Assembly: GCA_963847185.1 (NCBI GenBank)
Contig: CAWJYV010000010.1
Location: forward strand, 384,001 to 448,000
Direction: 5' to 3'
From: an uncultured Methanosarcinaceae archaeon
Lineage (GTDB): Archaea > Halobacteriota > Methanosarcinia > Methanosarcinales > Methanosarcinaceae
DNA length: 64,000 bases
Below, one piece after another: positions 3,556 through 51,542 of this stretch (position 1 is the first letter of the stretch; the number at the start of each line of letters is the position of its first letter). The notes beneath the pieces were generated by a model. The model made no database searches and was not told the DNA's origin. It saw only the letters and a program-made list of their open reading frames with translations. Both the position numbers and the translations under genes were made by a program.

Positions 3556-3810
3556 ATTTTGATAATATTTAAATCAAACGGTTGAAAAAATATAACATAG
3601 ATTATGCAAAAATTAATCGTTTTAAATTTTGCAAAGACAAAAATTAAGTATTAATACTCTTTGAAATAGAAAAAGCATTAATTAAAATCCATATTTACAA
3701 TTTTATATATTGGAAAAGTAATTCTAAATCTGATAAAAATAAAAAAAGTAATATTAAGATAGAACTCGGACGAATTGGAATGAGATAATCAGATCGAAAA
3801 TAATCTTTCA

Positions 3811-10923: not shown

Positions 10924-10928
10924 TTCAG

Positions 10929-11050
10929 ACTGTTTTACGCGCATTTTTGTGCAGAAAGCCTGATGCAACTTTTACACACCATAGGAACTCGTAAATCCTG
11001 TTGCGTCAATTGCTGCAATGGAGATGTTTTCTCCGTGTAAGTAAAACAGT
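10929..11050. repeat. ~120-bp nested inverted-repeat element
   Basis: ACTGTTTTAC/GTAAAACAGT perfect 10-bp IR, with inner TGATGCAAC/GTTGCGTCA; lies between convergent genes. Confidence 0.45.
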
Positions 11051-11277
11051 TTTAGAACCCTTGACTCATTACTTTTTTATCTGGGAAATTTGAGGTATTC
11101 TCTTTATGTGACTAGTGAACCTTATTTTCAAAAAGGTTTTTAATGGCATCATTTTTGCAGGAGACAGTAATTCAAATCCTTTTTAGTAAATATTGCTCTT
11201 AAATTGTCAGAATGTTTATCTAACAGATCCAGCAAAAAGCTTCAATTATTTATGTATTTTTACTTGTCACAAAAGAA

Positions 11278-34794: not shown

Positions 34795-34895
34795 ACTTCC
34801 CCTGACGAGTTAAGAGTATTTTTCACTTTCGCTCCGCCTGGAGAGTATTTTTTCTGTTTGACAAATCCATGCGGATAGATATTGAAAAAGCTAAA

Positions 34896-34955
34896 GGTCC
34901 AGATCTTAAACTTCGCACCCTCATTGAGGGTTAGAGACATCAAAAAAGTAACCCC
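34896..34955 (+). other. Second, more degenerate candidate casposon target/end junction
   Basis: GGTCCAGATCTTAAACTT-CGCA+10 nt-GGGTTAGAGACATCAAAAAAGTAAC has the same geometry as 35941. It could instead be the Brix 5' UTR hairpin. Confidence 0.35.
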
Positions 34956-35078
34956 GTTTTGCAAGATTTATATAAAACTTCTTTCAAAAATTGCCCCATT
35001 CATAAGTAATTATCTTTTTACAATGATCGTCTGAAAAAAATTAAGTTATTTTGGATGTTATTTTGAGTTATTTTGATG

Positions 35079-35603
35079 TTATTTTGGATGTTCCTTTTCG
35101 TTTGAAGTTTTCCCTTCATCCTGAAGAAGAGCAAGATCCAAAAGTTCTTCGTACACTTCCTTATGATGCATTCCAACTACACTGGCCTTGAATCGGTCCG
35201 TGCCGGTGCTCCCATCCCTTTGCAGATAAACATATTTTCCGTTTTCAATACCCATAATTACAGAGGCGTCGGGAATAATTCTCACGTTAAAGTATTTAGC
35301 AAGGTCCATGTTCTGATCCACATCCACAGCCATGAACGTTACTTTTCCCCCATATTCTGTTGCCAGTTCATCAAAGACAGGCTTCATTCCCCTACATGCC
35401 TTACACCATCGAGATCCGAATTTCAAAAAAACAGGGCCTTTCTGGAGAGATGCATTTATCTGCTCAATAGAGGTTACTTCTATAACAGTATTTTTCTCCA
35501 GGCCTGCATCGGCCTTTGTGGAATTTGCCTGAGTTTTTTCAGCACAGCCTTCTGCAGATATCATCACTGCAAGCAATATCAATAATGTAATTACTTTCTT
35601 CAT
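35079..35603 (-). CDS. Thioredoxin-family lipoprotein
   Basis: Signal peptide with EG-C lipobox, WCKAC active site and cis-Pro motif IP. Confidence 0.88.
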   Translation of the reverse strand: MKKVITLLILLAVMISAEGCAEKTQANSTKADAGLEKNTVIEVTSIEQINASLQKGPVFLKFGSRWCKACRGMKPVFDELATEYGGKVTFMAVDVDQNMDLAKYFNVRIIPDASVIMGIENGKYVYLQRDGSTGTDRFKASVVGMHHKEVYEELLDLALLQDEGKTSNEKEHPK

Positions 35604-35940
35604 ATTAGTCGTCCCCTACTCCACCAGAATATAATAAAGAAAATATTTGAAATGTGAACATACTTATTGGATTTACGCAACTGATTTTTAAACGGTTTAG
35701 ATAACAGGCCTCTTGTTAAAACTAAAGAGTTTAAGCTAGACCTTAGTGCATAGATAGACTACTTTGAAATATAAATGAATAATAGAATAAATTTTCCTTA
35801 TAATTAGTAGTGTTTAAAACGAATAAGGACATATTTTTTTTATTTCTTTCCAAATTATCAATAATTCAGTCGACATATATTTTTGAGTATAATTAAAATA
35901 AGGTTTTCTGCCTAGATAGAGGTCCTGGAAAAAAGAGTAA

Positions 35941-36006
35941 GGTTCGAATTTAATCCCTCGCACTAAATTCGTGGGTAATAGGGATCACGAATTTTTTGTA
36001 CGCAAC
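35941..36006 (+). other. tRNA-Leu-like 3' pseudo-target, 14-bp target copy and candidate casposon terminal repeat
   Basis: GGTTCGAATTTAATCCCT|CGCACTAAATTCGT (35959-72)|GGGTAATAGGGATCACGAATTTTTTGTACGCAAC. Confidence 0.65.
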
Positions 36007-36574
36007 AGACAAATTTTCACAGTATACTTTTTTAAAATACTTTCAAGTTAAAAAAGAGTATATTTTATATTTATAAAAATAAACAAATAATAAATTTTTT
36101 GTACGCAAGTGCATAAGTTACGCAAAACCACTTTTTCTAAAGTGGGTAAGTCAAAAATAAATTATCTCATTTTTGGAAGTTGCCTTAACAAAATTTACCT
36201 TTGTTCTCTTTCAAAAATTACCTTACAAAAATGAGAGGGGTTGTTTAAAAGTTTTGCAGTTAAAAATAAGGTTATTTAATATACAGATATGCTAATAAAT
36301 ATTTTGATATGTCCAATCTGTCAAAAATACTTACTAATTCAAAAAATGGTTGACTAAAACTGATTTTTTTGTAGTTTATTTAACTTACTGTATAATCTCA
36401 TTTTTTGGAATTTAGAATATATTATTCTGGATTTTTTTTCTTATATTGACTAAAAACTTGATGAGTTATTTCAAATTAATTTCAATACATAAAGCGATGA
36501 AAAAAGATCAAATCATATAACTATTTACTCTTTTAGTTTGGTAATAAACTTATACTTTTTTATGGGCGAATCTT

Positions 36575-39500
36575 ATGGAACCAGTTACTCAAATAATACT
36601 TGGAAAATCTATATCTTCTGTAATTAGTTATGGAGTTCAAACTCTGTGCAAAAAGATTCCTAATTCGATATTTGCTAAGGAAGAAATTGGGAGTGTAATA
36701 TTTGATAACTCTTACTTTGACTCCTTAGTAGAGAGAGATATTGAATACATTAACAAAGAAATAAATAATTTAGATAACACCTATGAAATAAATTTTGAAT
36801 CAATTTGTACATTTTTCAAATATCCAGAAATAGAATGTATAATACGTCAAATATACGCAGCTATTTTACCTAGGAATTTTACTCATGATAAGAACATCAA
36901 AGAGATTGAAAAAGAACTTGCACTTTTATTATCACTATACTTTGGTGTTAAACAGGAAAAAATTTCGAACCTTGCATCAATATTATTCGGCATATTGATC
37001 GAAGGATGTCAAGAGACACTCAGCAAGCAAATCTTCAATAGTGAACTTACAGCCCTAGCAATTATGTCAAATTATAATAATAAAATAATTCTTGATGAAT
37101 TAGAAGGAATAAAAAGGAATACTGAATTTCTTTTGGAGGAGGAAATAAACTCTAAAGAAATTCATCGCTTTTTTGGGGTATATCGTGATCTTCTGAAAGA
37201 AAGGCATAAATGGATACCAATTTCAAATTTCGAAGGTAGTGTAAGAAAACCTATTGATAAAATCTATGTATGCCCAAATTTTATCAAAAGAAGCAAGGAA
37301 AATAGAGTCAATAAATCCTTAGAGTTTTTTGATTTCCTTTCGAAAATACATCGCGTAGTAATACTAGGCGATCCAGGTAATGGAAAAACCACCTTCACTA
37401 AAAAAATGTGCTATGAGTTGTCTTCTAGATATTCAGACAGACTTTTTGCAGGAAGAGAACTGGTTCCTTTTTTAATAGTGATCAAAGATTATCAAGCAGA
37501 AAAAATGAAAAATAACATTTCAATAATAGATTTCATAAGTGATGGATTAAATCCGAACTTTCAAATAGAACCGCCTAAGGGTGCTTTTAAGTATCTTTTA
37601 TTGAACGGCTATATTTTGTTGATATTTGATGGACTTGATGAGCTTTTAGATACGAGATATAGAGAACAAATAGTATATGAAATTGAGTCATTTTGTACTC
37701 TTTACCCTTCAATTCCAGTAATAGTCACCTCTCGTAGAATAGGATATGAGGAAGCTGCATTAAGAGATGACATGTTTGAGATATATGAAATGACTTCTTT
37801 TAATAGAAATCAAATTAGAGAATATGTTGAAAAATGGTTTAGTTTAGATTATGAATTAAGTTCAAATCAAAGAATTGAAAAAGCAAGGCACTTCATGATT
37901 GAAAGCGAGAAGGTATCTGACCTTCGTTCTAATTCTTTGATGTTATCTTTGATGTGCAACATATATAGACAAGAAAATTACATCCCAGAAAACAGACCCA
38001 AAATTTATCAAAAATGCGCTGAAATGCTTTTCAAAAAATGGGATAGATATAGGGGAATTAATCCCAAGATCACGATACAAGACTCAAAAATAGAATCTCT
38101 CATTTCTCATCTGGCTCATTGGATATATACAAATGAGTTCTCAAAAGAAGGTGTAAGAGAAGAGGAGTTAATATGGAGAGCAACTGAATATCTTTACGGT
38201 TCTACTTATGAAGATCACGATGAAGCCAAAAAGGTGGCAGAAGAATTTGTAACTTTCTCAAAGGGACGCGCATGGATATTTACTGCTATTGGTACTAATA
38301 CAGATCAAGAATTATACCAATTCACACATAGGACTTTTTTAGAATACTTTACAGCAGAATGGTTTTGCAAAAATTTTGAGGATACATTTGAGTTAACTAA
38401 TGAGCTGATTCCAAAAATAAGTAAAAGAGAATGGGATGTAGTGGCACAGTTAGCATTCCAAATAAGGGGTGAATACTCAGAGAATGCAACAGATAAAATA
38501 TTCAACACTTTGTTGAAAGTAGCAAATGTATCAGAGGAAGTAGAATGTGGAAATTTACTCTCTTTTGCAGCAAAAAGCCTAGAGTTTATGAGACCAAGTC
38601 CAAATGTAGTTAAAGAGCTAACAAAAGAGTGTTTTGAGTTTTCTCTTTCTTTTGGAAATAGTATCACTAAGGGTAGGAATATGCAACAGGGGAGTATACT
38701 GACTCTGAATAGAATTAGAGGTCTTCCTATTAGATTAATTGTAGACCTCAGGCATTCTATAAGAGAAAATAAAATAAAAGTTGTTGAAACATTAAAAGAT
38801 TTGATAATAGATTATATTAAAAACAAAAGAGATTTTGAAGCAACTTTAGCAGCCGAAATCATTTTTGAATTGGCATATGGAAGATATGACGAAGCTTTGG
38901 GTAAAAAAGAACAACTATACTGGTCTGAAATATCGAATACTATATTCCAAGAATGTTATCAACTTAACAAACCATTATTTGAAGAAGATCTTCATTTGTG
39001 CCTACAATCTTATAATACCTCAATTATAATAAAAATAGATACAGTTCTGAAATTACATGGGTTAGAAGGCATATTATCTGATTTTACTAATTTCATGAAC
39101 CCAAATTCTCTCCATTATGGAATTGGATACTCTTTATTAGACAAAATATTTCCATTTGATTTCTATTTAATAAGAACAACAACTGATTCATATACAGAGG
39201 AAACTATCAAAAAAACATCAGAAATATTACGAAAAATTGGAGAATTTTGTTTAGAGAGTACTTTGCCTATAAATTTAAAAGAGGATTTGTGCACTATGGT
39301 AAACCATTATAAAAATTTTTTATCTGATATGAAGCTACAAACGCGATTCACAAATGATGGCATAAAGGTGCAAAATAGAATTAGTATTCTGCATAACTAC
39401 TCAGATTCTACAACAATTTTCGGAGCATTTTGCTTACTTGCTATTTTATTTGAGCTAAATAATAGTCCCAGATCTAGAACATTTATTAAACATTTTATAA

Positions 39501-39706
39501 ATCAAGTTGATACAAAACCTTTAAAAAAGATTTTTTTGGTATGGTTGGGGGGCTGTATAGATTGCAATGAAATAAAAAATGAACTTGACATGGTTGGGTT
39601 CTCGAGTAGACAAAAAGAATTCATAGAGAATTGGGCTCAAAAGAACATCCGTTTTTTAAGGAGTAAAAATAAAAGCTTAAAAGATTATGGGATTAATGTA
39701 TCTTAA
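36575..39706 (+). CDS. NACHT (STAND/NLR-like) NTPase, 1043 aa, probable antiviral protein
   Basis: Walker A GDPGNGKT, Walker B LLIFDGLDE, VTSR sensor, NSLMLSLMC and YQFTHRTFLEYFTA; visibly AT-rich. Confidence 0.92.
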   Translation: MEPVTQIILGKSISSVISYGVQTLCKKIPNSIFAKEEIGSVIFDNSYFDSLVERDIEYINKEINNLDNTYEINFESICTFFKYPEIECIIRQIYAAILPRNFTHDKNIKEIEKELALLLSLYFGVKQEKISNLASILFGILIEGCQETLSKQIFNSELTALAIMSNYNNKIILDELEGIKRNTEFLLEEEINSKEIHRFFGVYRDLLKERHKWIPISNFEGSVRKPIDKIYVCPNFIKRSKENRVNKSLEFFDFLSKIHRVVILGDPGNGKTTFTKKMCYELSSRYSDRLFAGRELVPFLIVIKDYQAEKMKNNISIIDFISDGLNPNFQIEPPKGAFKYLLLNGYILLIFDGLDELLDTRYREQIVYEIESFCTLYPSIPVIVTSRRIGYEEAALRDDMFEIYEMTSFNRNQIREYVEKWFSLDYELSSNQRIEKARHFMIESEKVSDLRSNSLMLSLMCNIYRQENYIPENRPKIYQKCAEMLFKKWDRYRGINPKITIQDSKIESLISHLAHWIYTNEFSKEGVREEELIWRATEYLYGSTYEDHDEAKKVAEEFVTFSKGRAWIFTAIGTNTDQELYQFTHRTFLEYFTAEWFCKNFEDTFELTNELIPKISKREWDVVAQLAFQIRGEYSENATDKIFNTLLKVANVSEEVECGNLLSFAAKSLEFMRPSPNVVKELTKECFEFSLSFGNSITKGRNMQQGSILTLNRIRGLPIRLIVDLRHSIRENKIKVVETLKDLIIDYIKNKRDFEATLAAEIIFELAYGRYDEALGKKEQLYWSEISNTIFQECYQLNKPLFEEDLHLCLQSYNTSIIIKIDTVLKLHGLEGILSDFTNFMNPNSLHYGIGYSLLDKIFPFDFYLIRTTTDSYTEETIKKTSEILRKIGEFCLESTLPINLKEDLCTMVNHYKNFLSDMKLQTRFTNDGIKVQNRISILHNYSDSTTIFGAFCLLAILFELNNSPRSRTFIKHFINQVDTKPLKKIFLVWLGGCIDCNEIKNELDMVGFSSRQKEFIENWAQKNIRFLRSKNKSLKDYGINVS

Positions 39707-39951
39707 ATATTAAACCACATATTAAGCTCCCTGCAAAAATATCTTTTCCAAAACTTATTAAGTTTGCAAACAGCCATTGTTTAACAAAATAGGTACCTTT
39801 AGTGCTTACTTTCAAAATAGAAATAAGACACACATTTTAATTTCATGACTTCAGGAGCGATGTTTATTAAAAATTTGAAATGTTTTTGTGGAAAAAGCCT
39901 CCGTTTTTTTTCTTTTGCTAATTTCCAGCCATAAAACTTGACTTTCCTTTA

Positions 39952-40659
39952 TCAAGTTTTAACCTGACCCCCTAAAACCAAATTTTCCCAAGCCTTAACT
40001 CTCTCCAAAACGTGGCTGTTTAGGGTAAAAGGTTTATCACTCTTGGCGTTCTGTTTCATATAATGTAAAGTACCCTTAGAAAACCCTAACTTTTTCCAAT
40101 CAACATAAGAAATACTCAGGATCTTTTGCCTTATTTCGTGGGAATCAACCCTCTGAACCCCAAATTCAGGGCTAACAAAATCTAATTCCTTTGGTTTTCC
40201 TGTAAGATTATGGGCTAACTCTCTGGCCTTTAGGAGTAATATAGACCCCCAGGTTGTCTGTTTATCCCCGTAATTTACGGGTTTGTTGAGCATGTTAGAG
40301 AACTCGTTAGCTACTTTCTTACCCCCAAGACCCCTTAATCTCAGGTTATAATTCTCGGTTACAATGAAATCTTTCTTATCCATTGTACCATTTTCAACTA
40401 AATTTATGACCGCTAAATCTACAAGAAACCTGAAAGGTTCCTGTAAATCATAGGCTAAACTATTTTTGCTGGGGTTCATTTCATGTAAAAACCCTACATG
40501 AGGGTCTAAACCAACAGTATTTATGACCCTTAAACACTCAGCTTCAAGTAAAGAATACCCATAATTTAGCATGGTACTTACCATATCCCCTGAACCCATA
40601 GGTCTTCTGTACTGGTCAATTCTTGAACAAAACTCGTACTTTTTCGGGATAGCTTTATT
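39952..40659 (-). pseudogene. cas1: 5'-truncated casposase (solo Cas1), fragment 1
   Basis: MLNYGYSLL, GLDPHVGFLH and LAYDLQEPFR motifs plus the tail WKKLGFSKGTLHYMKQNAK. Homologous reading runs back to NKAIPKKYEF (~40659), then TAG at 40678-80; the N-terminal domain is missing. Confidence 0.9.
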
Positions 40660-40790
40660 ATTTAACTTATCTAAGATCTATTATTCTTTTTGATTGTTTA
40701 TAATTATAAGGACTATACAGTTCTCATAATCTAGGGATTCATGAAAAAAAATAGATATGTTTATTAAGCAGTTTATTTTTATTAATTAGG

Positions 40791-40897
40791 TTACGCACTT
40801 GAAGTACCAAATCAACAGCTGTAAGCTTACAACTTTCTGAAATTTAAATTCTAAATCTGATGTTTACTGTACTTGATTTTGAATCTGAAGTGCGTAA
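40791..40897. mobile_element. ~110-bp MITE
   Basis: Perfect TIRs TTACGCACTT / AAGTGCGTAA; a lone similar end GGATTTACGCAACTG lies at ~35669. Confidence 0.7.
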
Positions 40898-40936
40898 GTC
40901 CAGATTATTTACACATAAAACAAACGAAGGGGATAT

Positions 40937-41908
40937 ATTATTAGAAGGACACTAATTTTTTGTTTAATGCTATTGCTTTTGATAAGCACAGCTTCAGCTG
41001 CGACACTTGATGTAGGACCCAAAGCGAAATATCATACGATTCAAAAAGCAGTAGATGCTGCTAAAGATGGGGATACTATTAGAGTTGCTCCAGGAACTTA
41101 TAAGGAAAATGTAAAAATCGATAACAAAACAATCTCATTAATGGGTACAAAATATCCTACAGTATATGGTTTTTGTTTTGAATCTGAGGATTTTGCTGAC
41201 TTCACCCAGTCTTTGAATATTAATGGATTCAAGATATCAAGAGATGGTGTGACCTTCACAGATTCAATTTTTTCTCATGCACCTATTACAACAGTGAGAA
41301 ACAATTATTTCTTAAACTGCAACATTACTATTACTGAGCGTAAGAATGGAATCAGTGTAATAAATAATCAATTCACAGGTCCTAAAGCCGGCATCCGCGC
41401 TTATGAAAGTAGCTATGATAAAGTTACAGGTAATAAATTCACAAATTGTGAAAAAGCAGCATTGGTTCAACTAGGATCAATAATTAAATTGTCAGGGAAT
41501 ACATTTACAAAATGTGATAACTGTGTGTACTCTTCTGAATCAGATTTTGGGGAAGTTTCTGATAATAAGTTTTCACAATGTCCAGTTGGACTACTACTCA
41601 CTGGATACACTCACGTTGATAAAATATCTACAAATTCGTTCACAAAATGTGGGACTGGCCTTAGTGTTATGGAAACAAAAGTTAACGACGTGGTTGGAAA
41701 TACATTTTCACAATGTGAGAAAGGGCTTTACGCTGAATCTTCATTTAACTCTCCATCATTTCCATCATTTGATAAAGTAACTAAAAACACATTTACTAAA
41801 TGTGATGTAGGCGTTACTCTTGTAGGTGTTCCAATTGATCCATTCACTGAAAATAAGTATATTAAAAACAAGAAAAACATAGAAATTATAAAAACAATAG
41901 AAGAATGA
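40937..41908 (+). CDS. Secreted right-handed beta-helix protein (NosD/pectin-lyase-like)
   Basis: YHTIQKAVDAAKDGDTIRVAPGTYKENV, then ~22-aa repeats (GNxFTxCxxG). The signal peptide n-region needs an ATT start at 40937 or 40940. Confidence 0.85.
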   Translation: MIRRTLIFCLMLLLLISTASAATLDVGPKAKYHTIQKAVDAAKDGDTIRVAPGTYKENVKIDNKTISLMGTKYPTVYGFCFESEDFADFTQSLNINGFKISRDGVTFTDSIFSHAPITTVRNNYFLNCNITITERKNGISVINNQFTGPKAGIRAYESSYDKVTGNKFTNCEKAALVQLGSIIKLSGNTFTKCDNCVYSSESDFGEVSDNKFSQCPVGLLLTGYTHVDKISTNSFTKCGTGLSVMETKVNDVVGNTFSQCEKGLYAESSFNSPSFPSFDKVTKNTFTKCDVGVTLVGVPIDPFTENKYIKNKKNIEIIKTIEE

Positions 41909-41924
41909 GAGCTATTAAATTAAT

Positions 41925-42070
41925 GGTTCTGTTGCAAAAAATCTGGTTATTTTACAAAACCAGTGAGAAACATCACAATTGGGATATATAGGAGCCATAA
42001 AACAAGTCAATTATGGAACAAAAAGGATTATCATCCTAAAGGATAGAAAAATTATTTTTGCAACAGGACC
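41925..42070. mobile_element. 146-bp MITE with IS6-like TIRs
   Basis: GGTTCTGTTGCAAAAA / TTTTTGCAACAGGACC (15/16 match). Confidence 0.8.
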
Positions 42071-42299
42071 GCCTAACTTGAGAACAGGAGCAGGAAACAC
42101 TAGTCATGTGAACACGGTTGTTTAACTTGAAGGTTTTTAAACCAGAACTCACCAAGCTATTGGTTTTTAAGGCATTCTTTAACTTATGGAAAAATACTCT
42201 TTTTTAGTTTTTGGGAACTCAGAAACAATATTTTTGAAATATTTAAAAAAAGTTTTTGTGAAAAAAATATTTGGTTTTTTCCTTTCTTTAACCCCCTAA

Positions 42300-42590
42300 C
42301 CTTAAAACTTAACCCCCAAAACCAAGTTTTCCCAAGCCTCAACCCTCTCCAAAACGTGGCTGTTAAGTGTAAAAGGTTTATCACTTTTGCGTTTGTTTCA
42401 TGTAATGCAAATTTCCCTTATAGAACCCTAATTTTTTCAAATCAATGTAAGAAATACTCAGGGTCTTTTACCTAATTTCTTGGGAATCAACCCTCTGAAC
42501 CCCAGATTCAAGCAAAGCATACCCATAATTTAGCATGGTATTTACCATGTTTCCTGAACCCATAGGTCTTCTATACTGGCCAATTCTTGA
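42300..42590 (-). pseudogene. cas1: Casposase cas1 fragment 2 (internal deletion, frameshifts)
   Basis: Matches ~39965-40172, joined directly to a match of ~40550-40626. Confidence 0.9.
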
Positions 42591-42679
42591 TTAAACAAAA
42601 CAGAACAAATGATTTTAATATGTAAAAACACGATTTATAAAAATTGGAAGTAGGGAGTAAATTTTGAACTTTTCGAGAT

Positions 42680-43114
42680 TTATTTAATAACAATAGTCTT
42701 ATGAACCCACATCTTTTTACCACAATCTTTACACTTAATAGTCAAACAGCTAATGTAATAACCGGTTTTTGAAAACTTGTGTACCGGATTTTTTAGTGAT
42801 GAAGTAATTTTTTTTCCTTCGAGATGTTTTCCATCTCCAAAGTCCCATCTGATGTATGTCTCTTTACCTTTTGATAGATCCTTAAATTTTACTACTCGCG
42901 GATCGCTTGAAGAAGCGGCTACCGCTGTATAATCAATGTGAGAATGCCCGCATTTGCAGGACAGACAGGCTGTTGCTGGAGGGGTTCCTGCACCAAGAGG
43001 AGTCTTGGTTACAGAAATTTTTGCAGAGGCTCCTGCAGACAATAAAGTCAATATCATTAATACGGTGAAAACAGATAATGTTATTTTCCATATAGACTTT
43101 CCAGTATTTTTCAT
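42680..43114 (-). CDS. Secreted single-PKD-domain protein, Cys/His-containing
   Basis: Signal peptide; FKDLS...WDFGDG...NPVHKFSKTGYY. Confidence 0.88.
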   Translation of the reverse strand: MKNTGKSIWKITLSVFTVLMILTLLSAGASAKISVTKTPLGAGTPPATACLSCKCGHSHIDYTAVAASSSDPRVVKFKDLSKGKETYIRWDFGDGKHLEGKKITSSLKNPVHKFSKTGYYISCLTIKCKDCGKKMWVHKTIVIK

Positions 43115-43457
43115 ATAATTCTCTCCTGTTTTTTCTTAGTTTTATTCGGGAAACCCGTAACCAAAAGTTCCAGGGAAAATTAACATATAAACATACTTAT
43201 TTTCATGATATCTCATAAAAATCAGAAAGCGGATTTGAAGCTTTGTAATGCTTTATTTTCAGGCTAAAAACATTATGACATATGAAAATAGATTTAATAT
43301 TTATTTGATTTGATTTAAAAAGGGAATGTAAGTCTTTTAGACATGTAACACTGTCAAATCTCTTTAGGTTATTCTAATATGGCAATCGGCAGTCTGTCTA
43401 AAAAAAGATTGATGAATCGGGGAAATAGTGTAAGATTGACTTGGAGAAGAAATAAGT

Positions 43458-43506
43458 GCTAAAATTACAAGAAACCTGAAAAGTTTCTGTTAATAATAAG
43501 CTAAAC
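43458..43506 (-). pseudogene. cas1: Casposase cas1 fragment 3 (~50 bp)
   Basis: GCTAAAATTACAAGAAACCTGAAAAGTTTCTGTTAATAATAAGCTAAAC vs 40412-40460 GCTAAATCTACAAGAAACCTGAAAGGTTCCTGTAAATCATAGGCTAAAC. Confidence 0.75.
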
Positions 43507-43641
43507 ATGATTTATTTAAGCCATTGATAGATATATTTTAAAATAAAATAACATTTTTACAAAGAAATAATTAAATATTAAAACTTTCTTATTATAGATA
43601 GAAAAGCTAAAATTCAATAAGCAAAATCGGGGGATGGATAT

Positions 43642-43773
43642 ATGGGGGACGAAATATCCGACGAGGATAAAAGGAGACTGGCTATTTTCCTGCTTGTCTT
43701 CTGTTTACTGACAATAACAATTACAGCATTTATGGATTATTTCACAATCTTTCAGGCCATTTAGACTTTTTAA
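43642..43773 (+). CDS. Single-TM peptide A (40 aa to the TAG; 43 aa if the amber is read through)
   Basis: MGDEISDEDKRRLAIFLLVFCLLTITITAFMDYFTIFQAI-TAG-TF*; gapless paralog at 44917. Confidence 0.65.
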
Positions 43774-43875
43774 CTTCAGGTCAACGTCAAATATACCATT
43801 ATGATAAAACGACAAGAAATATTATGGGAAAGCATTTTATTTGGATGCTCAGGAGAAAACTTAATCAGAGCTCCC

Positions 43876-44163
43876 GAAACTAGTTTTCCCAGGCCTTAAC
43901 CCTCTCCAAAACATGGCTGTTAAGGGTGAAGGGCTTATCATTTTTGGCACCTTGTTTCATGTAATGCAAAGTTCCTTTAGTTTAGGCTGCAATTTTCAGT
44001 TACAATGAAATTCTTCTTATCCATTGTACTTTTTCAGCTAAATTTATGACTGCTAAATATACAAGAAACCAGAAACCTGAAAGGTTCCTGTAAATCTTAG
44101 GCTAAACTGTTTTTGCTCGGGTTCATTTTTATAAAAACCCCGCATGAGGATCTAAACCAACAG
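43876..44163 (-). pseudogene. cas1: Casposase cas1 fragment 4 (a different internal deletion)
   Basis: Matches ~39975-40080, joined to a match of ~40340-40517; contains a small AGAAACC duplication. Confidence 0.9.
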
Positions 44164-44332
44164 GTAAAATGGCTCAAATGATAGAGTCAATACAAAGAAT
44201 CAAATACCTGAAAACTCTTCAGAACTCTTTGAGATATTCATGGCCAATTGGGAGCAGATACACAGGGGCTTAACCCTGCTATCTTTTTTGTGGAAATTCG
44301 ACGTCCCAATTGAAGCACAAGAGGATTTTTTG

Positions 44333-44719
44333 ATGAAAAAGATATGTCTTTTATTAGTTATGCTACTAATTACGAGCGTATTTAGTGGCTGCATCGGACA
44401 GGAACAAAACTCAGAAGTTAACAATACGACAACACCTTCGTACAACAGTACCCAGAACAGGCATCCCAGTTTCTGGTCAATGATGTTCTGGTCGAGTCTC
44501 TGGAGCAGATATGTAACACCAGGCATCCAGGCTGCAAAATACCGCGCTACTCCCGACACCGCAACAAAAAAAGACGCTTCAACCCCCTCAAAAAAAGTTG
44601 ACGCAAAAGACCCAACAGAAACAGCAAATAAAAAATCAGTAAGCCCGGATTCCGGAAACAAACCAAAACCTAGAGTAAAAACAACTACTGCACGAATTAG
44701 GCGAAGCGGAAGACGTTAA
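44333..44719 (+). CDS. Small lipoprotein with Trp-rich helix and basic tail
   Basis: RBS GAGGA; MKKICLLLVMLLITSVFSG-C; FWSMMFWSSLW; ends RIRRSGRR. Confidence 0.75.
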   Translation: MKKICLLLVMLLITSVFSGCIGQEQNSEVNNTTTPSYNSTQNRHPSFWSMMFWSSLWSRYVTPGIQAAKYRATPDTATKKDASTPSKKVDAKDPTETANKKSVSPDSGNKPKPRVKTTTARIRRSGRR

Positions 44720-44916
44720 TATATATTTTAACTTGGTCATATTGACCTGGTCATGACTTCCAATTCATTTTTTATTTCTCTGAATGCCAGGTACTATTTT
44801 AGCGTTTTTTCCCATATAATTCAATATTTTTACAAAGAAATAGATAAATATTGAAACATCATAATTATCAATATTAAAAATAAAATTGACTCGGCAATAA
44901 TATGGGGTGTTGCTAT

Positions 44917-45048
44917 ATGGAAATAGAAATATCCGACAAGGAAAGAAGAAGGATTACTATTTTCCTGCTAATCTCGTGTTTACTGGCAATAACAGTTACA
45001 GCGTGTATATGTAATTTAACAACCTTTCTAGCCGGTTATCTGTTCTAA
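44917..45048 (+). CDS. Single-TM peptide B, 43 aa
   Basis: MEIEISDKERRRITIFLLISCLLAITVTACICNLTTFLAGYLF*; RBS GGGGTG. Confidence 0.65.
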   Translation: MEIEISDKERRRITIFLLISCLLAITVTACICNLTTFLAGYLF

Positions 45049-45181
45049 CTTTCCCCAGGATACTTTAATCTTGAGTTATAATTCTTATTTACTATTTTCA
45101 ATTACAGTGAACTTAAAAAAGGCAATAAATTAGATAGTAAGTTAGTCTTCTATCCTACTATCAATTGCACTTGATTCTATT

Positions 45182-48121
45182 TCATCTTCGTTTATACAGG
45201 AATGCTCCAAGAAGACCAATTATGCAGGAAATTATTTCAAATCCGGGAGTACTTACGTTTTCTTTCTGAGGAGTATTTGTTTTTTCTGCTTCCTCAGATT
45301 TTTCAACGTCTGATGCTGTAATTCCATTTTTTTGTCCGGGATCCTGTGTGCTGGTTTCAGGCAGGATTCCAATCACATTTCCTTTTCCTGCTGTCCTGGC
45401 AGTTATTGCAAATGGAGAGAATCCAGGGGTTCCTGCTGTGAAATACAGATAGCTATTGTCTTCTTTGACGAAGGCTGTTGGAAGTTCGTTCCATTTCTTG
45501 TCACTGTATCTGTTCAGGATTATTGAAGACTGGTCAATTTCTTTACCTTTTATCCAGTCCTTTTCGACTTTGAAACAGATGACGCCGTTTTCGAGATTAT
45601 CTGCATCACTTCCATAACCCCCGTTTCCAACCCAGATATTGAGGTAGTTGTAGACCTCGCCTTCAGGCGTCTCCGGAGTAAGCGTGGATTTACTTTTAAG
45701 CATCTCGACAATGGCTGTTGTCTTACCAACGGTCTTTTTTGGATCAAAGCATAAGTAAACAATATCAGTGGCATCATTTGTAAAATCAAACTTTGCAGGA
45801 TTTCCACCTGTAATGAAGACCTGACAAAGTTCCTTTACTTTGACATTCTTTGCAGGCTCGGGAGAACCAGCACCTCCACCACTTCCACCGCTTCCTCCAC
45901 TGTTGCTATCGCCGCTTGAACCTGTCTGGCTCAGTGCTGTTATTGTAGCCGTTTTTGTGTCAGTTCCGTCTGCATTGCTCGTTATAAGGCTAACGTCGTA
46001 GGTTCCTGCCGAGGAATAAGTATGCATCGGATTTTGCTCAGTTGAAGTACATTCGTCTCCAAATTTCCAGTACCATGAAGTTGGAAACCCTGTGCTTGTA
46101 TCCTCAAACTGAACGATCAAGGGTATATTTCCATATGTCGTGCTTGAACTGAAGTTCGATGACGGAGGGTGTGATAGGGCTGTGATGTAATTCACTTTTT
46201 GAATAGAATCTGATCCGAATTCATTTACTACGGTCAGGTTAACAGTATAATTTCCGATATTCGAATATTCATATATCGGATTCTGAAGCGTTGATGTATT
46301 TCCATCGCCGAAATCCCACAACCAGGATTCTGGAAGTCCGGTTGATGTGTCATTGAACGCCACACTTAGCGGGCGTGGACCGGTTGTGGAATTGCTGCTG
46401 AAGCTGGCAGCTGGAGCTGTCGGTGGAATAACAGTAATTGCCTGGAGCATGGAATCACTGGAAACTTCATTTGCTACAGTTAGATTAGCCGTATAGACTC
46501 CAGGAGTTGCATACGTATGAGTAGCGTCTGCACTATTACTTACAGGCGAACCATCCCCGAAATCAAGCAGTTCTGTGGTCTGGTTGACGCTGCAATCCTT
46601 AAAAATCACACTTTTTCCAGCAAATATGCTGTTTCTGGAAACTTCATAATTTGCAGTCACACTGGAAAATCTTGGAGGTGGCACCCAGGAAGAATTGCCC
46701 AGATCTCCCATGTGATAGAATGCCCCGCCATTACGACTTGTATAATCAAGAATCGACTCCAGTCTATCCGTTGAAGTCTGATATGAGATAGTGACATTTG
46801 GAGTGATCGTATGCCCATATAACACAAGTACGGTTCCTGTTTTTATTGCGTAATCGATCCCGTCTTCTATAGACTGCAAGCTAGCACCGGACCGGTCATC
46901 TATTTCAACACCATACAGAAGTTGAGAATCGTCCCACTTGTAATAAGCCAGTGTTGTTTCGTTTACGTTCCCGTTTACAAGCGTGGGAGTTCTCGTTCGA
47001 AGTGTCCGGAAATATGGAGATAATGCTACATCTGTATCTGCATTTCTACTCGAATAAGGGTATGCAAGAGTAAAAACCGGATAACCATAGCGGGTGATCT
47101 CTACGATATTAGGGAATATTTCCTGGCTTAGCCATGCTGTAGGAGGGTTATCATTTACAAACTGAACTGAGTTTATGTGATTGTATCCATGGCAGGCTAC
47201 TTCCCATCCAGCCGAATGCAGTGCATTTAATTCATTTATTACGGCCTGTGATCTGGTACTTACTTTATTTACATTAATAGTACACGTAGCATTATATTTC
47301 TGGAACATTGACAAATATGGGTAACAGGTTTCGATATGTGCTGAATCGTCCCAGGAGAGAGCAATGCCTCCAGGTTTGTCTAATTTCTTTATGCTCCGGA
47401 GATCATTGCCATATAAATTTAAGACCTCAGATGGATTTAATGTTCTGTTATACAAATAAAAAGCATAGATTGACCCGTTTAGCCCATACGCAGTATCAGG
47501 GGAAGATCCTATCGTCCAGTTACCCTTCTGATCAGTGATATAGTCTGGACCTGGAGCAGCAGCTGTATAGTTTACACCTTTCCCATTCGCAATTCCATTG
47601 AGATATAATTGAGCGTGAGAGCCATCGTATGTCACAATAGCTTCATAATCTTTATCAGGCTGGATACGGCTCTCACCTGAACCGGAAATAGTATAATCAT
47701 TTGCATTAAATTCATACATCAGCGTTGAATTCCTGTGGTCAATGCCGATCTTGAAAATATTATTGCCTTTGGAAACCAGGTATGTATAACGAGCCGGATT
47801 GCTGGAATTATAACGAAAAAATACCCCACATGTTATATTCGGATCAGTAAATGCCAGCTTTTCATTGTCAGGTATTGTTATCCTATTTTTTCCGTTAAAA
47901 TGCCTTGCTATTTGTTCAGTTGGTAAAATAAAAGTTGTACTGCCGTTATTTATACCATTATTTCCGTATTCGGAATTGTCAACTATAGTATCCCCTGTGT
48001 CTTCACACCAGTTATAATACACGATTTGATTTGCGTCCGCACATGCATTGCCAGCCAGACCTGTTATGAATATGAACAATAGTCCACATATCGCGTATAT
48101 TTTAAAAAACTGAATTTTCAT
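45182..48121 (-). CDS. Surface protein: LamG-like + polysaccharide deacetylase + 3 PKD + PGF-pre-PGF + PGF-CTERM
   Basis: LSWDD/HGYNH NodB motifs, three [LW][DK]FGD PKD repeats, TPGFSPFAIT and a terminal TPGF-TM-KRR archaeosortase signal. Confidence 0.9.
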   Translation of the reverse strand: MKIQFFKIYAICGLLFIFITGLAGNACADANQIVYYNWCEDTGDTIVDNSEYGNNGINNGSTTFILPTEQIARHFNGKNRITIPDNEKLAFTDPNITCGVFFRYNSSNPARYTYLVSKGNNIFKIGIDHRNSTLMYEFNANDYTISGSGESRIQPDKDYEAIVTYDGSHAQLYLNGIANGKGVNYTAAAPGPDYITDQKGNWTIGSSPDTAYGLNGSIYAFYLYNRTLNPSEVLNLYGNDLRSIKKLDKPGGIALSWDDSAHIETCYPYLSMFQKYNATCTINVNKVSTRSQAVINELNALHSAGWEVACHGYNHINSVQFVNDNPPTAWLSQEIFPNIVEITRYGYPVFTLAYPYSSRNADTDVALSPYFRTLRTRTPTLVNGNVNETTLAYYKWDDSQLLYGVEIDDRSGASLQSIEDGIDYAIKTGTVLVLYGHTITPNVTISYQTSTDRLESILDYTSRNGGAFYHMGDLGNSSWVPPPRFSSVTANYEVSRNSIFAGKSVIFKDCSVNQTTELLDFGDGSPVSNSADATHTYATPGVYTANLTVANEVSSDSMLQAITVIPPTAPAASFSSNSTTGPRPLSVAFNDTSTGLPESWLWDFGDGNTSTLQNPIYEYSNIGNYTVNLTVVNEFGSDSIQKVNYITALSHPPSSNFSSSTTYGNIPLIVQFEDTSTGFPTSWYWKFGDECTSTEQNPMHTYSSAGTYDVSLITSNADGTDTKTATITALSQTGSSGDSNSGGSGGSGGGAGSPEPAKNVKVKELCQVFITGGNPAKFDFTNDATDIVYLCFDPKKTVGKTTAIVEMLKSKSTLTPETPEGEVYNYLNIWVGNGGYGSDADNLENGVICFKVEKDWIKGKEIDQSSIILNRYSDKKWNELPTAFVKEDNSYLYFTAGTPGFSPFAITARTAGKGNVIGILPETSTQDPGQKNGITASDVEKSEEAEKTNTPQKENVSTPGFEIISCIIGLLGAFLYKRR

Positions 48122-48790
48122 TGTAATTAAACCCCTTAAATGAAATAAATGTTGAAGTATTCTATCCAAAAAGCAATTTTAGTGCCGCATTTTTCCCTTA
48201 TAGTCCAAATTCCTTCATTTTGACAAAATGAAATAATATTATTCTCATTTTGATTTACTCCAACTTCATTATTGTCTGAGTATTTACATAGTGTGACCCT
48301 CGTGTTAGGACTGTAAAATTCAAAAATTCTTTACTATGATATTGATCTAATAATCACAAAGCCAGGGTTTGAACGAATAATCCAATTAGTAAACAATGTT
48401 AAAATAATTATACAGGTCAAACATTATAACTTTTTTGTCCAGTATGTGATAATTATATAATATACATTATTAATATAGACGCATTTAAGGTAAAGAAATA
48501 CATATAGGAATATAGAAACTAGATATTTCCAATAATGTAGAAAAACAAGGAATGATAAAATGCATAAAGAGAGAAAAAGCACTGTAATTGTCTATGAAAA
48601 CAAAAAATTGATTTATAGAAAATATATCTAAATAAGCCTAATAAGTAGAAAAAATGAATAAGAAAGACTATCTGGACAATAACTCTTTCTTAAGTTTCAT
48701 TTCATTAGCGCAAATTCTCCTCAAATAATCCTGAGATTACAGACAGAAAAAATATTGAGGACTTTTCTTCTTCATCCATTTGAACCGGCA

Positions 48791-50152
48791 TTAGAACACT
48801 CCTTTTGGCCCTGCTGACAACGCTTCAAGCCAGGGGAAGTCTTTTCTCATAGACGCATTCTTAATCACCTGTTCTACATACCCCTTATCAACGTTAACGT
48901 CGGATGTGGAATTTGCGTATAAGTAATTTCCACCGGCGTTGTTTGAGAGGCAGTTGTTTTCCAGGATGAAGGAATGAGTGCCATTCAGCTTATTAAATAC
49001 TGCATATCCTTTTCCGGCTGTACGGCTTGGCTGTGTATTAATAATTATATTATTTTTTACAAGGGTTGTGTATCCGGATTCCGGGGCTGCAAAGGCTTTA
49101 ACTCTTTTGTGGGCTATGGCTGCGCCGTAGCACCCATCAAAGAAATTATTCTCTATGATGGTGTTCTGGAAGCCGTTAAGCACTATGCCGCCTCCCCAGT
49201 CAGCGCCCTGGTTGATGCTGGTGTCATAAAACCTGTTATTATGGATGTATATGTCTTTTGCATCATCTTTGGAGTATTTGGATCCGTAGCCTGTAATCCA
49301 GATGCCTGCGGCGTTGGTTTCATACAGGAGGTTATTGTATATCTCGATGTCATCCATTACGGTTGATGAGCCTTCTTTCTGGATCTGGATGCCTGCGCCT
49401 CCTTCCCCTTCGGAGTTAATGGTGTTGTTGTAGAAATTTATGTGGTTTGAGTTGTAAGCTCTCAGGCCGCTGTTTGTCCTGCAGGTTATTTTGTTGTTCC
49501 AGGCTTCTATGTTTGAGGAATAGACGGCATAGAGGACATCATGACCCAGTTTGTATACTGTGTTATTATAGAACTCGATGTTTGAACACCTACTAACTTT
49601 CAGGCCATCTCCATGGCTATCGTGCATGTACATATCATGAACTTTTATGTTTTCGGATTCAAGGAAATGAATCAGATTGTAATAGCTTTGCCCATTAATT
49701 TTATCCTCGTTCTTGTCGTGGTTTCCGTAGATCTCAAATCCCCTTATAGTAATATCAGTATTTCCGGAGCTGTCCATCTGTGTAATAAGAGGTTTTTCTG
49801 CTGGCCAATCTGCATTATCTTCAAGTTTTATTACAGCTGTTGAATCGCCTTCCAGGATTGTATTGCTTCCAATAAGAATACTGTCTGAGATCACGTATGT
49901 AATATTGCCTTCCAGGTGAACGGTTGAGTATTCAGGATTTTCTGCCACGTAAGCAAGAGCCTTATTTATCTCAACCTGATCATCAACACCATCACATACG
50001 AAATCCCCACTCTCATTAGTAGTTACATACACAATTTTGCCAGAAGGCTCTGGCAGGAAGAAAATTATAATTGAGATTAAAAAAATAAAAAGCAAGAGTG
50101 AAATTACTATTTTTCTGATTCCCCATTTGTTAGTTTGTAGTTCTTCGTCCAT
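48791..50152 (-). CDS. Membrane-anchored right-handed beta-helix protein, disaggregatase-related
   Basis: CDGVDDQVEINKAL, HDMYMHDSHGDGL and NNKITCRTNSGLR motifs; N-terminal TM segment. Confidence 0.85.
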   Translation of the reverse strand: MDEELQTNKWGIRKIVISLLLFIFLISIIIFFLPEPSGKIVYVTTNESGDFVCDGVDDQVEINKALAYVAENPEYSTVHLEGNITYVISDSILIGSNTILEGDSTAVIKLEDNADWPAEKPLITQMDSSGNTDITIRGFEIYGNHDKNEDKINGQSYYNLIHFLESENIKVHDMYMHDSHGDGLKVSRCSNIEFYNNTVYKLGHDVLYAVYSSNIEAWNNKITCRTNSGLRAYNSNHINFYNNTINSEGEGGAGIQIQKEGSSTVMDDIEIYNNLLYETNAAGIWITGYGSKYSKDDAKDIYIHNNRFYDTSINQGADWGGGIVLNGFQNTIIENNFFDGCYGAAIAHKRVKAFAAPESGYTTLVKNNIIINTQPSRTAGKGYAVFNKLNGTHSFILENNCLSNNAGGNYLYANSTSDVNVDKGYVEQVIKNASMRKDFPWLEALSAGPKGVF

Positions 50153-50582
50153 TTTACATCCTCAAACAAATAAAACTATATCTTTCATATATTAAAAAAA
50201 TTTACCTGTTAAAAATTGTAAAAGACCTTTTTGAAGATGTCTGGACATTCAGCAGGGCCCTGACTGCTAAAATCAATTAATAGCTTTCCTGAATACGTTC
50301 TTTGAAGGTTCTATTCCTAGGAAAATTTTCTTTACCATAAAAGAAAGATTTGGCGAAAATATCGGAAAAAGCTCATAATATAATTATATTTTTACAGTTT
50401 TATTATGACAAAATATTATATATTTGGAGATATAACATTTAAATGTCAAATTGAATAAATAGTGAAATGAGCAAACCACCTCAAGTTGAAAATGTAGAAT
50501 TAAGTCGCTTCAAAGCAAAAATAATTATTGAAAACAGAATGCAGGGATCTGGCATCTACAAAATCTCTGGTGAGGTGATAAA

Positions 50583-51035
50583 ATAAGTCCTGATGAATCT
50601 AAAGACAAAAGAGCAGAAAATGAAAACTCAAATAATGAATTTTTTGATCTTACGGCAATTCCCCTTCCAAAAACCGATAATTCACTATATTCGATTTTGA
50701 ATTCCTTAAATCAGAATATTGCAGACTTTTATACTCTTGTGAAATTCAACAGTTATCTATCTGAAGACCACCTGAATGTCGAACTACTTAAAAGAAGTAT
50801 GAGTATTCACAGGGATTTTGCAGTTCTCTTCCTCCATACCAAAGAAGAAATGGTATTCACTGCCCACTCAGAATTTTTGGAGAAAGTGGAAAGATTGTTG
50901 TTCAAAGGAGAAGTGAGTAATAATTGCATAAACTATACCTGCAAATTATGCAGGATAATAAATGACTATAAAATAGCCTTACACATAGAGGGATATCTGC
51001 CAGATCCGAAAATAAGCTCACTGTCTCCAGTTTAG
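50583..51035 (+). CDS. Hypothetical protein, paralog of 13901-14368
   Basis: Homology extends upstream of the called TTG (50697) to ATA 50583 behind RBS GAGGTGA; in-frame TGA at 50571. Confidence 0.75.
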   Translation: MSPDESKDKRAENENSNNEFFDLTAIPLPKTDNSLYSILNSLNQNIADFYTLVKFNSYLSEDHLNVELLKRSMSIHRDFAVLFLHTKEEMVFTAHSEFLEKVERLLFKGEVSNNCINYTCKLCRIINDYKIALHIEGYLPDPKISSLSPV

Positions 51036-51202
51036 TTATCTAATTATCTGCCTGATTATCTGCCAACTTGTCCTTCTCTCCAGGTTTCTTTTTCTAGAAG
51101 TGAAGAAGTATTAACCGGAATCTCTTACCCTAGCTTTCTCACAAAGTACTATGGGATGCAACTATTCACTGCTGCAACCTGATGCAGCGGGCGAAAACAA
51201 TG

Positions 51203-51272
51203 ACTGATAGAAAAGGACTGATAAAAAAGGACTGATAAAAAAGAACTGATAAAAAAGAACTGATAAAAAAGA
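51203..51272. repeat. 14-bp tandem repeat ACTGATAAAAAAG(G/A) x5
   Basis: Directly visible, downstream of rpoP. Confidence 0.92.
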
Positions 51273-51404
51273 ACTTGATATGTAACTGCTGGATAAAAAA
51301 AAGTTGTTTTTGTCCTGCCCATCGAATTATTAGATAGGGGGCTTATTCAAAAAGCCCTGTTTTTATCTAATACTTCTGCTTATACGCCGGAGTAAAAATA
51401 TTCT

Positions 51405-51542
51405 TTACTCGGCATCAACGCGTTTGATGGTTGTAGGACGCTCTTTTACGAGAATTCTGTGTCCGCAATAGGGACACCTTATACCTGTGTACTCGTAGTC
51501 GATTTCTACTTTCTGTTTACAGCGAGTGCATTTATACCCCAT
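51405..51542 (-). CDS. rpoP: RNA polymerase subunit P (Rpo12), 45 aa (not in ORF track)
   Basis: [45 protein letters not shown]; follows rpl37ae. Confidence 0.96.

Follow-up and report, generated by a model that had tools for sequence, protein, structure and literature searches.

Stacked cas1 3' stumps and cargo genes at a casposon target site in a Methanosarcinaceae genome: a probable accretion-and-erosion array

Results

cas1 stumps alternate with different genes in a low-GC island

The DNA analyzed here, hereafter the window, is a stretch of 64,000 nucleotides (nt) of contig CAWJYV010000010.1 from an uncultured Methanosarcinaceae archaeon (GCA_963847185.1; positions C10:384001-448000 of genome G000, completeness 99.8%). 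It carries four co-oriented 3' pieces of a casposase gene (cas1), which we call stumps, on the minus strand and with different genes, or cargo, in between. Casposons are self-replicating, CRISPR-related transposons from which the CRISPR adaptation module is proposed to descend; to our knowledge, very little is known about their fate after insertion. The stumps lie within a low-GC island of approximately 35.6-45.1 kb, where GC is 0.23-0.38 as compared with ~0.39-0.45 in most flanking bins (500-nt bins). For comparison we used 59 genomes of the genus (labelled G) and a set of fetched loci (labelled L); G040A denotes array L033. The island contains the following features, with coordinates within the window.

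35941-35972, plus strand: degenerate tRNA-Leu(UAA) 3' remnant (T-arm and acceptor end), recognized by alignment to relatives
35973-36193, plus strand: left terminal inverted repeat (TIR-L) of a casposon; outer copy 35973-36028, sub-terminal copy 36093-36145 plus 36170-36193
36575-39706, plus strand: unit 1 cargo, NACHT/STAND NTPase of 1043 amino acids (aa); Pfam NACHT, E 2e-14; convergent with stump 1
39964-40656, minus strand: cas1 stump 1; profile positions 529-1221, the 3' 57% of the gene
40967-41908, plus strand: unit 2 cargo, NosD-like parallel beta-helix protein, 313 aa; Pfam NosD, E 6e-22; hydrophobic N-terminus
42308-42590, minus strand: cas1 stump 2; profile positions 1016-1221 and 559-646; internal deletion, frameshifted
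42680-43114, minus strand: unit 3 cargo, PKD-domain protein, 144 aa; Pfam PKD_4, E 1e-8; N-terminal hydrophobic segment
43458-43506, minus strand: cas1 stump 3, a 49-nt mid-gene piece; blastn 85.7%, E 2e-8
43642-43764, plus strand: small transmembrane peptide open reading frame (ORF) 1, 40 aa; no Pfam family
43871-44175, minus strand: cas1 stump 4; profile positions 1106-1216 and 656-844; internal deletion
44240-44719, plus strand: putative lipoprotein ORF; an internal Met precedes a lipobox-like FSGC, judged from the translation only; no Pfam family
44902-45048, plus strand: small transmembrane peptide ORF 2, 48 aa, paralogue of ORF 1
45053-45095, minus strand: possible fifth cas1 piece, weak and doubtful; 74% over 43 nt to 40323-40365

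We located the stumps with a nucleotide profile (1224 positions; reporting threshold E 1e-3) derived from 12 full-length casposase genes found in relatives, and with blastn, using 39800-40800 as the query against the whole genome. Stump 1 keeps an intact frame (ORF 39952-40599, 215 aa), the product of which matches Pfam Cas_Cas1 over profile positions 186-282 of 283 (E 1e-29) and the solved casposase chain 6opm_A over residues 211-419 (E 1.5e-105). It is 91% identical in nucleotides and 96% in amino acids to the intact casposase of G052, with a ratio of nonsynonymous to synonymous divergence (dN/dS) of 0.07, and most of the divergence could predate truncation; this similarity is mosaic, at 81% in alignment columns 540-630 and 94-98% in columns 630-810. 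Stumps 2 and 4 are each split over several reading frames (tblastn) and yield two blastn matches apiece, at 42306-42510 (87.5% over 208 nt, E 7e-66) and 42503-42601 (86.9% over 99 nt) for stump 2, and at 43884-43980 (82.5% over 97 nt) and 43991-44163 (85.7% over 175 nt, E 1e-50) for stump 4. Identities computed from our fragment-added alignment, by comparison with blastn, understate the resemblance where fragments have indels. Stump 3 falls below nucleotide-profile reporting and rests on blastn, and the doubtful fifth piece was missed by both methods.

Homology between stumps 1 and 2 continues for ~70 nt beyond the cas1 stop codon. The C-terminal extension of the casposase is retained in stumps 1, 2 and 4; the name helix-turn-helix (HTH) for this extension comes from PMC6977970 and not from a domain model applied here. 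An IQ-TREE phylogeny of 35 sequences, covering the 250 nt shared at the 3' end, places stumps 1 and 2 together in a group with poor resolution. The window holds only 3' pieces and no full-length casposase, and neither an intact cas1 nor a cas1 5' half was found genome-wide.

The left edge of the island bears a tRNA-Leu remnant, a target site and a casposon terminus

The last 14 nt of the tRNA remnant (35959-35972) constitute a CGCA-type target-site sequence that abuts the TIR; the motif TCGCACTAAAT has a single exact occurrence in the window. In G040 (L034), the counterpart of 35941-36028 by alignment is a true tRNA-Leu 3' end with its target duplication and TIR, and matching degenerate tRNA remnants are present in G008 (L027), G040A and G007 (L045). 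ARAGORN called no tRNA in the region, and Rfam returned no match in 34800-51500 at E values up to 0.1.

A TIR profile built from 9 sequences and run with nhmmer matched TIR-L with E values of 2.4e-4 and 1.5e-5. The sub-terminal copy in the window lacks the outer 18 nt. Doubled TIR-L sequences occur in four scanned loci (the window, L033 1418-1598, L034 2694-2883 and L045 1641-1829) and therefore represent a lineage feature of the element, not two insertions. Across these loci the second copy lacks the outer 13-19 nt and lies ~100-117 nt inward of the first, and in the window the two copies share a direct repeat of 16 identical nt that starts at 35990 and at 36093. No other TIR match in the window had E < 1; one weak match, at 34928-34998 (E 5.8), lies to the left of the island. 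Motif searches and the TIR profile also found no right TIR and no second target copy in the island, including near 45.1 kb, the TIR consensus pattern being blind even at the window's true TIR, whose sequence deviates from it. An inverted repeat joining 35795-35826 and 40681-40712 (75% over 32 nt) was considered and set aside as probably a chance match in AT-rich DNA.

Intact casposons and a tandem intermediate explain the layout of the left arm

Relatives contain intact, TIR-bounded casposons, of which four examples (L026 5655-15809, L025 6317-17754, L031 7577-17886 and L027 1615-12267) all have the same order: TIR-L, variable cargo of 2.2-4.1 kb, cas1 on the opposite strand, a core of HTH, HNH and polB genes, and the right TIR (TIR-R). 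In each of the four, the 3' end of cas1 faces the cargo on the TIR-L side. By this layout, the TIR-L, NACHT gene and stump 1 of the window correspond to a casposon left arm cut inside cas1.

The casposon of G008 (L027) is part of a tandem. There, a tRNA-like remnant is followed by the 14-bp target duplication, a complete 10.6-kb casposon, an identical 14 bp and a second TIR-L, after which come a 981-aa HD-CE/HATPase protein and a cas1 stump (profile positions 671-1224). Here the insertion of one element after another on the tRNA side can be observed directly, at an intermediate stage. G046 (L073) retains a partial internal TIR-L immediately after a stump.

Published biochemistry offers a rationale for this polarity. 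Efficient integration by the Methanosarcina mazei casposase requires the 14-bp site together with ~30 bp of upstream tRNA-Leu sequence (PMC6977970), so that after insertion only the tRNA-side copy of the target remains a good one. In vivo, a mini-casposon integrates at the left target site of a resident element, yielding a tandem (PMC10359463), and tandem casposon pairs and solo TIRs have been described and explicitly likened to Tn7 islands (PMC4779613, Krupovic et al. 2016).

These comparisons bear on a first-pass annotation of the window, which had reported four co-oriented cas1 3' fragments, three of them reaching the end of the gene, interleaved with NACHT, beta-helix, PKD, transmembrane-peptide and lipoprotein-like genes. 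All four fragments lie where it had placed them, blastn recovering every one and the nucleotide profile all but stump 3; the profile brings stumps 1, 2 and 4 to the cas1 3' end, and the cargo is as listed. Its assignment of the fragments to family-2-type casposases is supported, and its observation that cargo sits beside the cas1 3' end turns out to describe the normal left-arm anatomy of intact casposons.

Casposon cores are lost and cas1 3' ends remain across the genome and the genus

Because the fragment loci were picked with a 3' query, only a scan of the window's own genome and paired searches of the genus give unbiased estimates of which part of cas1 survives. In the profile scan of G000, all 11 cas1 fragments fall at or beyond profile position 529. 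Stump loci outside the window number five or six and are distributed over contigs C2, C4, C6 and C10. A tblastn search with five core proteins of the G008 casposon detected no casposon polB genome-wide; the sole trace of a core gene lies outside the window, at C10:309094-309186, where 31 aa of one core ORF remain. The genome likewise contains no right TIR.

Across the genus, a query representing the C-terminal half of the casposase gave 362 matches in 51 of the 59 genomes, as against 61 matches in 31 genomes for an N-terminal-half query of similar length; the 61 include ~12 intact casposases and ~13 CRISPR-type cas1 genes (23-31% identity). Among 53 fragment clusters, the 5' breakpoints are spread over positions 441-1151, as fits erosion from the core side, with a loose group of seven fragments at 656-694; a single fragment is confined to the 5' third. 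Co-oriented arrays of several stumps are found in G040 (two arrays), G002, G035, G041, G046 and G009.

The stump loci elsewhere in G000 vary in makeup. At C4:11129-16981, a true tRNA-Leu(UAA) is accompanied by TIR-L, by three cargo ORFs and by a stump that shares 93% identity with stump 1; in G052, an intact casposon with different cargo occupies the orthologous site. C6:16059-18430 contains a tRNA-Leu 3' fragment and two stumps, C10:303515-310887 a TIR-L, three stumps and the 31-aa core ORF piece, and isolated stumps are located at C10:31055-31158 and C2:70293-70372. Partial casposase C-terminal matches, sometimes several per chromosome, also occur in Methanolobus, Methanococcoides, Methanohalophilus and Methanomethylovorans (L089-L156), and stump formation may extend beyond Methanosarcina.

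Array blocks are shared between species and differ at the tRNA end

Parts of the array recur in other species. G040A begins with the tRNA remnant, a double TIR-L, a 949-aa TPR protein and a stump, followed by the beta-helix gene (91% nucleotide identity to that of the window) and another stump, and it continues through a 210-aa ORF, a stump, the PKD gene (88%), a stump, the lipoprotein gene (85%) and further stumps. The units from beta-helix to lipoprotein thus stand in the same order in the window and in G040, where they occupy another locus. In G054 (L035), the order is TIR-L, Mrr-type nuclease, stump and beta-helix gene (92%), and G053 (L039) matches the window at 94% from stump 4 to the junction with the flanking 995-aa gene, with its orthologue of stump 4 at 92%. 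The window, G040A and G054 have the beta-helix unit in common and differ in their first cargo (NACHT, TPR protein and Mrr nuclease, respectively). Shared distal units combined with variable tRNA-proximal cargo indicate turnover at the tRNA end.

Between the window and G040, the beta-helix and PKD genes both have a synonymous divergence (dS) of 0.17; four flanking genes, either core or chromosomal, have values of 0.35, 0.76, 0.93 and 0.95. Together with the different location in G040, the low array value implies that the block moved between lineages after their split, and blocks are thus passed on or exchanged as ready-made arrays. Orthologous stumps are no better conserved than the cargo, at 86% against 92% for the beta-helix gene in G054, and at 80-87% against 85-91% in G040A.

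Two junctions show where arrays differ. Stump 2 of the window is the counterpart of two G040A stumps, f2 and f3, that enclose the 210-aa ORF: its left flank matches that of f2 (183/199) and its right flank that of f3 (83/100). Over 136 shared columns it is 80% identical to f2 and 79% to f3, and the crossover point is not resolved. The simplest reading is a deletion by direct-repeat recombination in the window's lineage, the alternative being an insertion in G040. Such a difference between cassettes with junctions in cas1-derived DNA had been anticipated in the first-pass annotation, and this comparison of the window with the G040 array supplies one case. The other junction lies to the right of stump 1, where the window and G054 share beta-helix upstream sequence from window position 40675; the shorter stump of G054 reflects a further 439-bp deletion, and the cargo to its left nonetheless differs (Mrr as opposed to NACHT). 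The stump 2 junction, the G054 comparison and the mosaic structure of stump 1 would fit cargo replacement by recombination between an incoming cas1 and a resident stump.

Stump length was considered as a clock and rejected, as no gradient from the tRNA end exists in G040A or G040B. The window itself is consistent with the newest element lying next to the target: of its stumps, the proximal one is longest, retains an open frame and shares 91% identity with an intact gene. One sludge metagenome data set contained a near-identical NACHT region and stumps at very high summed depth, as expected of a repeat shared by many strains; no metagenome or metatranscriptome run contained half of the sampled words. 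Stump-to-stump joints in metagenome contigs were not used as evidence of recombination, since repeats and mixed strains render them ambiguous.

Cargo genes are maintained and are only in part linked to casposons

The cargo is under constraint: its dN/dS values range from 0.33 to 0.62, and the frames are intact in several species. Nucleotide relatives of the NACHT gene at 73-75% identity occur in G015, G028 and G018, with none in the 18 loci L024-L041. The beta-helix gene has orthologues beside cas1 stumps in G054 (89% aa) and G040 (83% aa) and a dN/dS of 0.46-0.62. Metatranscriptome contigs from the same sample as the sludge metagenome span 40872-42087, including this gene, at ~97% identity; they give a weak hint of its transcription in a related strain, with DNA carry-over as a possible source, and those parts of the window without RNA contig cover, such as the NACHT gene, carry no information on expression. 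Upstream of the beta-helix gene, at 40791-40897, is a pair of 34-nt imperfect palindromes with perfect 10-nt ends that is conserved in G054 and might serve in regulation or mark the end of an element.

PKD homologues outside G000 are found at 15 loci, six of which adjoin a cas1 stump or TIR (L033, L040, L027, L075, L067 and L070). The putative lipoprotein has orthologues in G053 (93% aa) and G040 (79% aa), with a dN/dS of 0.33 against G053. The regions of the two transmembrane peptides (43543-43776 and 44816-45051) are 73-74% identical and each is followed by cas1-derived DNA, so that the pair is either a small conserved casposon gene beside cas1 or a local duplication. PADLOC assigned the NACHT and beta-helix proteins to no family.

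In relatives, the cargo next to stumps is often defense-like. The HD-CE/HATPase cargo at L027 12693-15638 has a PADLOC match to a DRT-associated domain, the Mrr-type nuclease at L035 541-1983 has a ZorD-like C-terminus, and L034 encodes a DzbB-like protein and radical-SAM proteins, one of them viperin-like (3217-4551, 7376-8500 and 9996-11366).

The Brix-rpoP interval is a recurrent casposon landing site

The island occupies the interval between conserved Pcc1-Brix genes, which extend to ~34,860, and a block that begins at ~51,300 upstream of exosome genes. In 36 genomes the two flanks share a contig and are no more than 100 kb apart; 17 of these have at most 0.7 kb in between, and the remaining 19 have intervals of 1.4-90 kb, G000 included at 17.2 kb. 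We fetched 19 intervals, 17 filled and two empty; the empty form has no tRNA. The first-pass suggestion that the interval would vary across the genus is borne out, with cas1 stumps in 7 of the 17 other filled intervals (L043, L044, L045, L048, L050, L052 and L054) and TIR matches in L044, L045, L054 and L050. We conclude that the interval is a recurrent casposon landing site and an insertion hot spot, the contents of which vary between species.

In the window, the interval (34860-51300) also contains a thioredoxin-like gene, a gene for a 995-aa surface protein and a disaggregatase-related gene. The surface-protein gene forms the right, non-casposon flank of the array.

45182-48169, minus strand: 995-aa surface protein with Pfam PKD domains, polysaccharide deacetylase and PGF-CTERM

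Its orthologue in G040 directly follows a different stump array (L034), which starts at a true tRNA-Leu(UAA) and carries a DzbB-like protein and two radical-SAM proteins as cargo.

Discussion

The locus is probably an accretion-and-erosion array of family-2-type casposon left arms. Under this model, the casposase would integrate at the 14-bp CGCA-type site, of which only the tRNA-side copy would keep its ~30-bp tRNA-Leu context. Later casposons, as observed in G008, would then enter in a single orientation, behind the tRNA remnant and ahead of the preceding element, displacing older elements outward. Deletions would remove the DNA from inside cas1 through polB and the right TIR, usually along with the left TIR of the next element, and what survives would be a cargo gene, probably selected, and a convergent cas1 3' end that shrinks by small deletions. 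Recombination between stumps as direct repeats, a process whose products are visible between arrays and whose direction we infer, would remove or swap cassettes, and whole array blocks would pass between Methanosarcina species. The stumps are, by this account, relics and not working parts, with stump 1 and its open frame as a possible exception.

Several observations weigh against this account. Units 2-5 are not separated by internal target duplications or TIRs (motif searches, TIR profile), and their status as separate insertions is consequently drawn from other genomes. The phylogeny of the shared 250 nt leaves separate origins of stumps 1, 2 and 4 undecided, and the shortest stump of G040A (71 nt, as against 148, 169 and 304 nt) is the proximal one. 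The window's cargo is absent from the TIR-bounded intact casposons in a small sample of 18 loci (tblastn, L024-L041), so that the cargo homologues sought in intact elements on the strength of the first-pass annotation did not materialize. Of the 15 PKD loci, nine have no remnant within ~8 kb or a stump only at ~7 kb (L061-L066, L068, L069 and L071), so the PKD gene may belong to the ordinary chromosome and have been enclosed by insertions on either side; a local duplication could account for the two transmembrane-peptide units. Finally, neutral erosion alone does not obviously explain a 3' bias of approximately six-fold or greater, and cargo selection combined with erosion accounts only partly for the retention of cas1 3' ends. 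As for the serial arrival of casposons proposed at first pass, the tandem in G008 lends it support and as a general picture it largely holds; the notion that every arrival took place at this locus and in this strain does not stand: G040 has the units at another locus, G054 and G053 share units, and dS is low.

A different view of the stumps is that, with TIR-L, they provide portable homology and serve as the working recombination sites of a gene-capture system, in which recombination between an incoming casposon and a resident stump eliminates the casposon's core while cargo is fixed or replaced, and in which cassettes move across arrays and species. Such a platform would account for the single window stump that corresponds, with orthologous flanks, to two G040A stumps around the 210-aa ORF, for the common beta-helix upstream sequence behind different cargo in G054, for the mosaic stump 1 and for an array dS of ~0.17 relative to G040 where four flanking core genes are at 0.35-0.95; at least four stump-bearing loci in the genome could pair. 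However, direct-repeat recombination only deletes, and no gain event could be polarized. Stump 2 resolves no crossover point (80% and 79%), the metagenome joints are ambiguous, the stumps show no extra conservation and are mostly frameshifted, and the island ORFs scanned include no integrase or other dedicated recombinase, findings that also argue against the integron-like platform of the first-pass annotation. We consider a platform of this kind unlikely. A related proposal, that stumps trap landing casposons, which lose their core while cargo is added or replaced, and that cassettes are exchanged between species by homologous recombination, is doubtful in our view, if plausible enough to be kept in mind.

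The array could alternatively descend from one truncated casposon that was duplicated in place, the interleaved genes having arrived by unrelated events. All stumps share one orientation and one casposase clade, the transmembrane-peptide regions resemble one another and are each followed by cas1-derived DNA, and within the sampled set stump 2 is matched most closely by stump 1. This history is nevertheless improbable, given that stump 1 is nearer to the C4 stump (93%) and the G052 casposase (91%) than to stumps 2 and 4 (80-87%), that neighbors and deletion patterns differ from stump to stump, that multi-stump layouts with other cargo exist at many loci in many species, and that G008 presents a true tandem insertion with a repeated target duplication. 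That same end-to-end arrangement at a target duplication is at odds with nested insertion, whereby each new casposon split a resident cas1 and the 5' halves subsequently disappeared together with the cores in one block. The seven fragments with 5' breakpoints near 656-694 might hint at a preferred site for such events; the breakpoints are otherwise continuous from 441 to 1151, no TIR-L in the window abuts a stump breakpoint, and the genome contains no mirror array of cas1 5' halves. We judge nested insertion highly improbable.

The accretion-and-erosion array invites comparison with several known systems. It shares with tandem family-2 casposons and solo TIRs (PMC4779613, PMC10359463) the element family, a 6opm-type casposase with its C-terminal extension, the tRNA-Leu/CGCA target and TIR type, and the repeated use of one site at which the older copy decays. 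The tandems described in the portions of these papers we consulted are full-length or nearly full-length pairs, or bare solo TIRs, whereas the window holds four to five units of cargo plus cas1 3' stump whose internal TIRs are lost; the layout also differs in its genus-wide recurrence, strong 3' bias and array parts shared between species. Like Tn7/attTn7 and tRNA-linked islands, the locus has a fixed target beside a conserved gene and retains defense-type cargo; an order with the newest element next to the target and inactivated older ones behind it is present in G008 and would fit the window. Unlike such islands, the locus depends on a Cas1-family integrase and not on TnsABCD or a tyrosine recombinase, and the relic is the 3' end of the integrase gene in place of the element ends.

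Integrons also present ordered, co-oriented single-gene cassettes with a recurring separator and the greatest variability at the entry point. In the array, unlike in integrons, the recurring sequence is a decaying pseudogene and the cargo genes face both directions. No IntI-type integrase was found with Pfam on nine and NCBIfam on five ORFs of 34.3-45.0 kb, a set from which some small ORFs are missing, and no attI/attC or common promoter turned up, the repeat scans revealing only the cas1-derived separator and no attC-model search having been made. With CRISPR arrays, the locus has in common a Cas1-family enzyme, insertion beside a leader-like sequence, and a shared distal end with a differing proximal one; the units inserted are transposons on the kilobase scale and not spacers, with no true repeats and no interference module. 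The literature we searched contained no description of multi-unit cas1-stump arrays or of their 3' bias: the consulted portions of PMC4779613, PMC10359463, PMC6563490 and PMC6977970 report tandem pairs and solo TIRs and no such arrays, and the supplementary lists of PMC4779613 may include some remnants.

Our findings suggest that the usual fate of a casposon in Methanosarcina is neither an intact element nor a bare solo TIR, and is instead a cargo gene fixed beside a cas1 3' stump. Such cargo-stump units stack at tRNA-Leu-type targets with their variable end on the tRNA side, and the stacks are exchanged between species. This would give a concrete route for the permanent delivery of NACHT, Mrr, HD-CE, radical-SAM and surface-protein genes to the host, and a natural parallel to the leader-proximal growth of CRISPR arrays. 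If the stumps do act as traps, the locus would further represent a recombinase-free, self-perpetuating means of capturing defense and surface genes with CRISPR-like polarity, and a living example of how the insertion site of a Cas1 element may become an ordered array.

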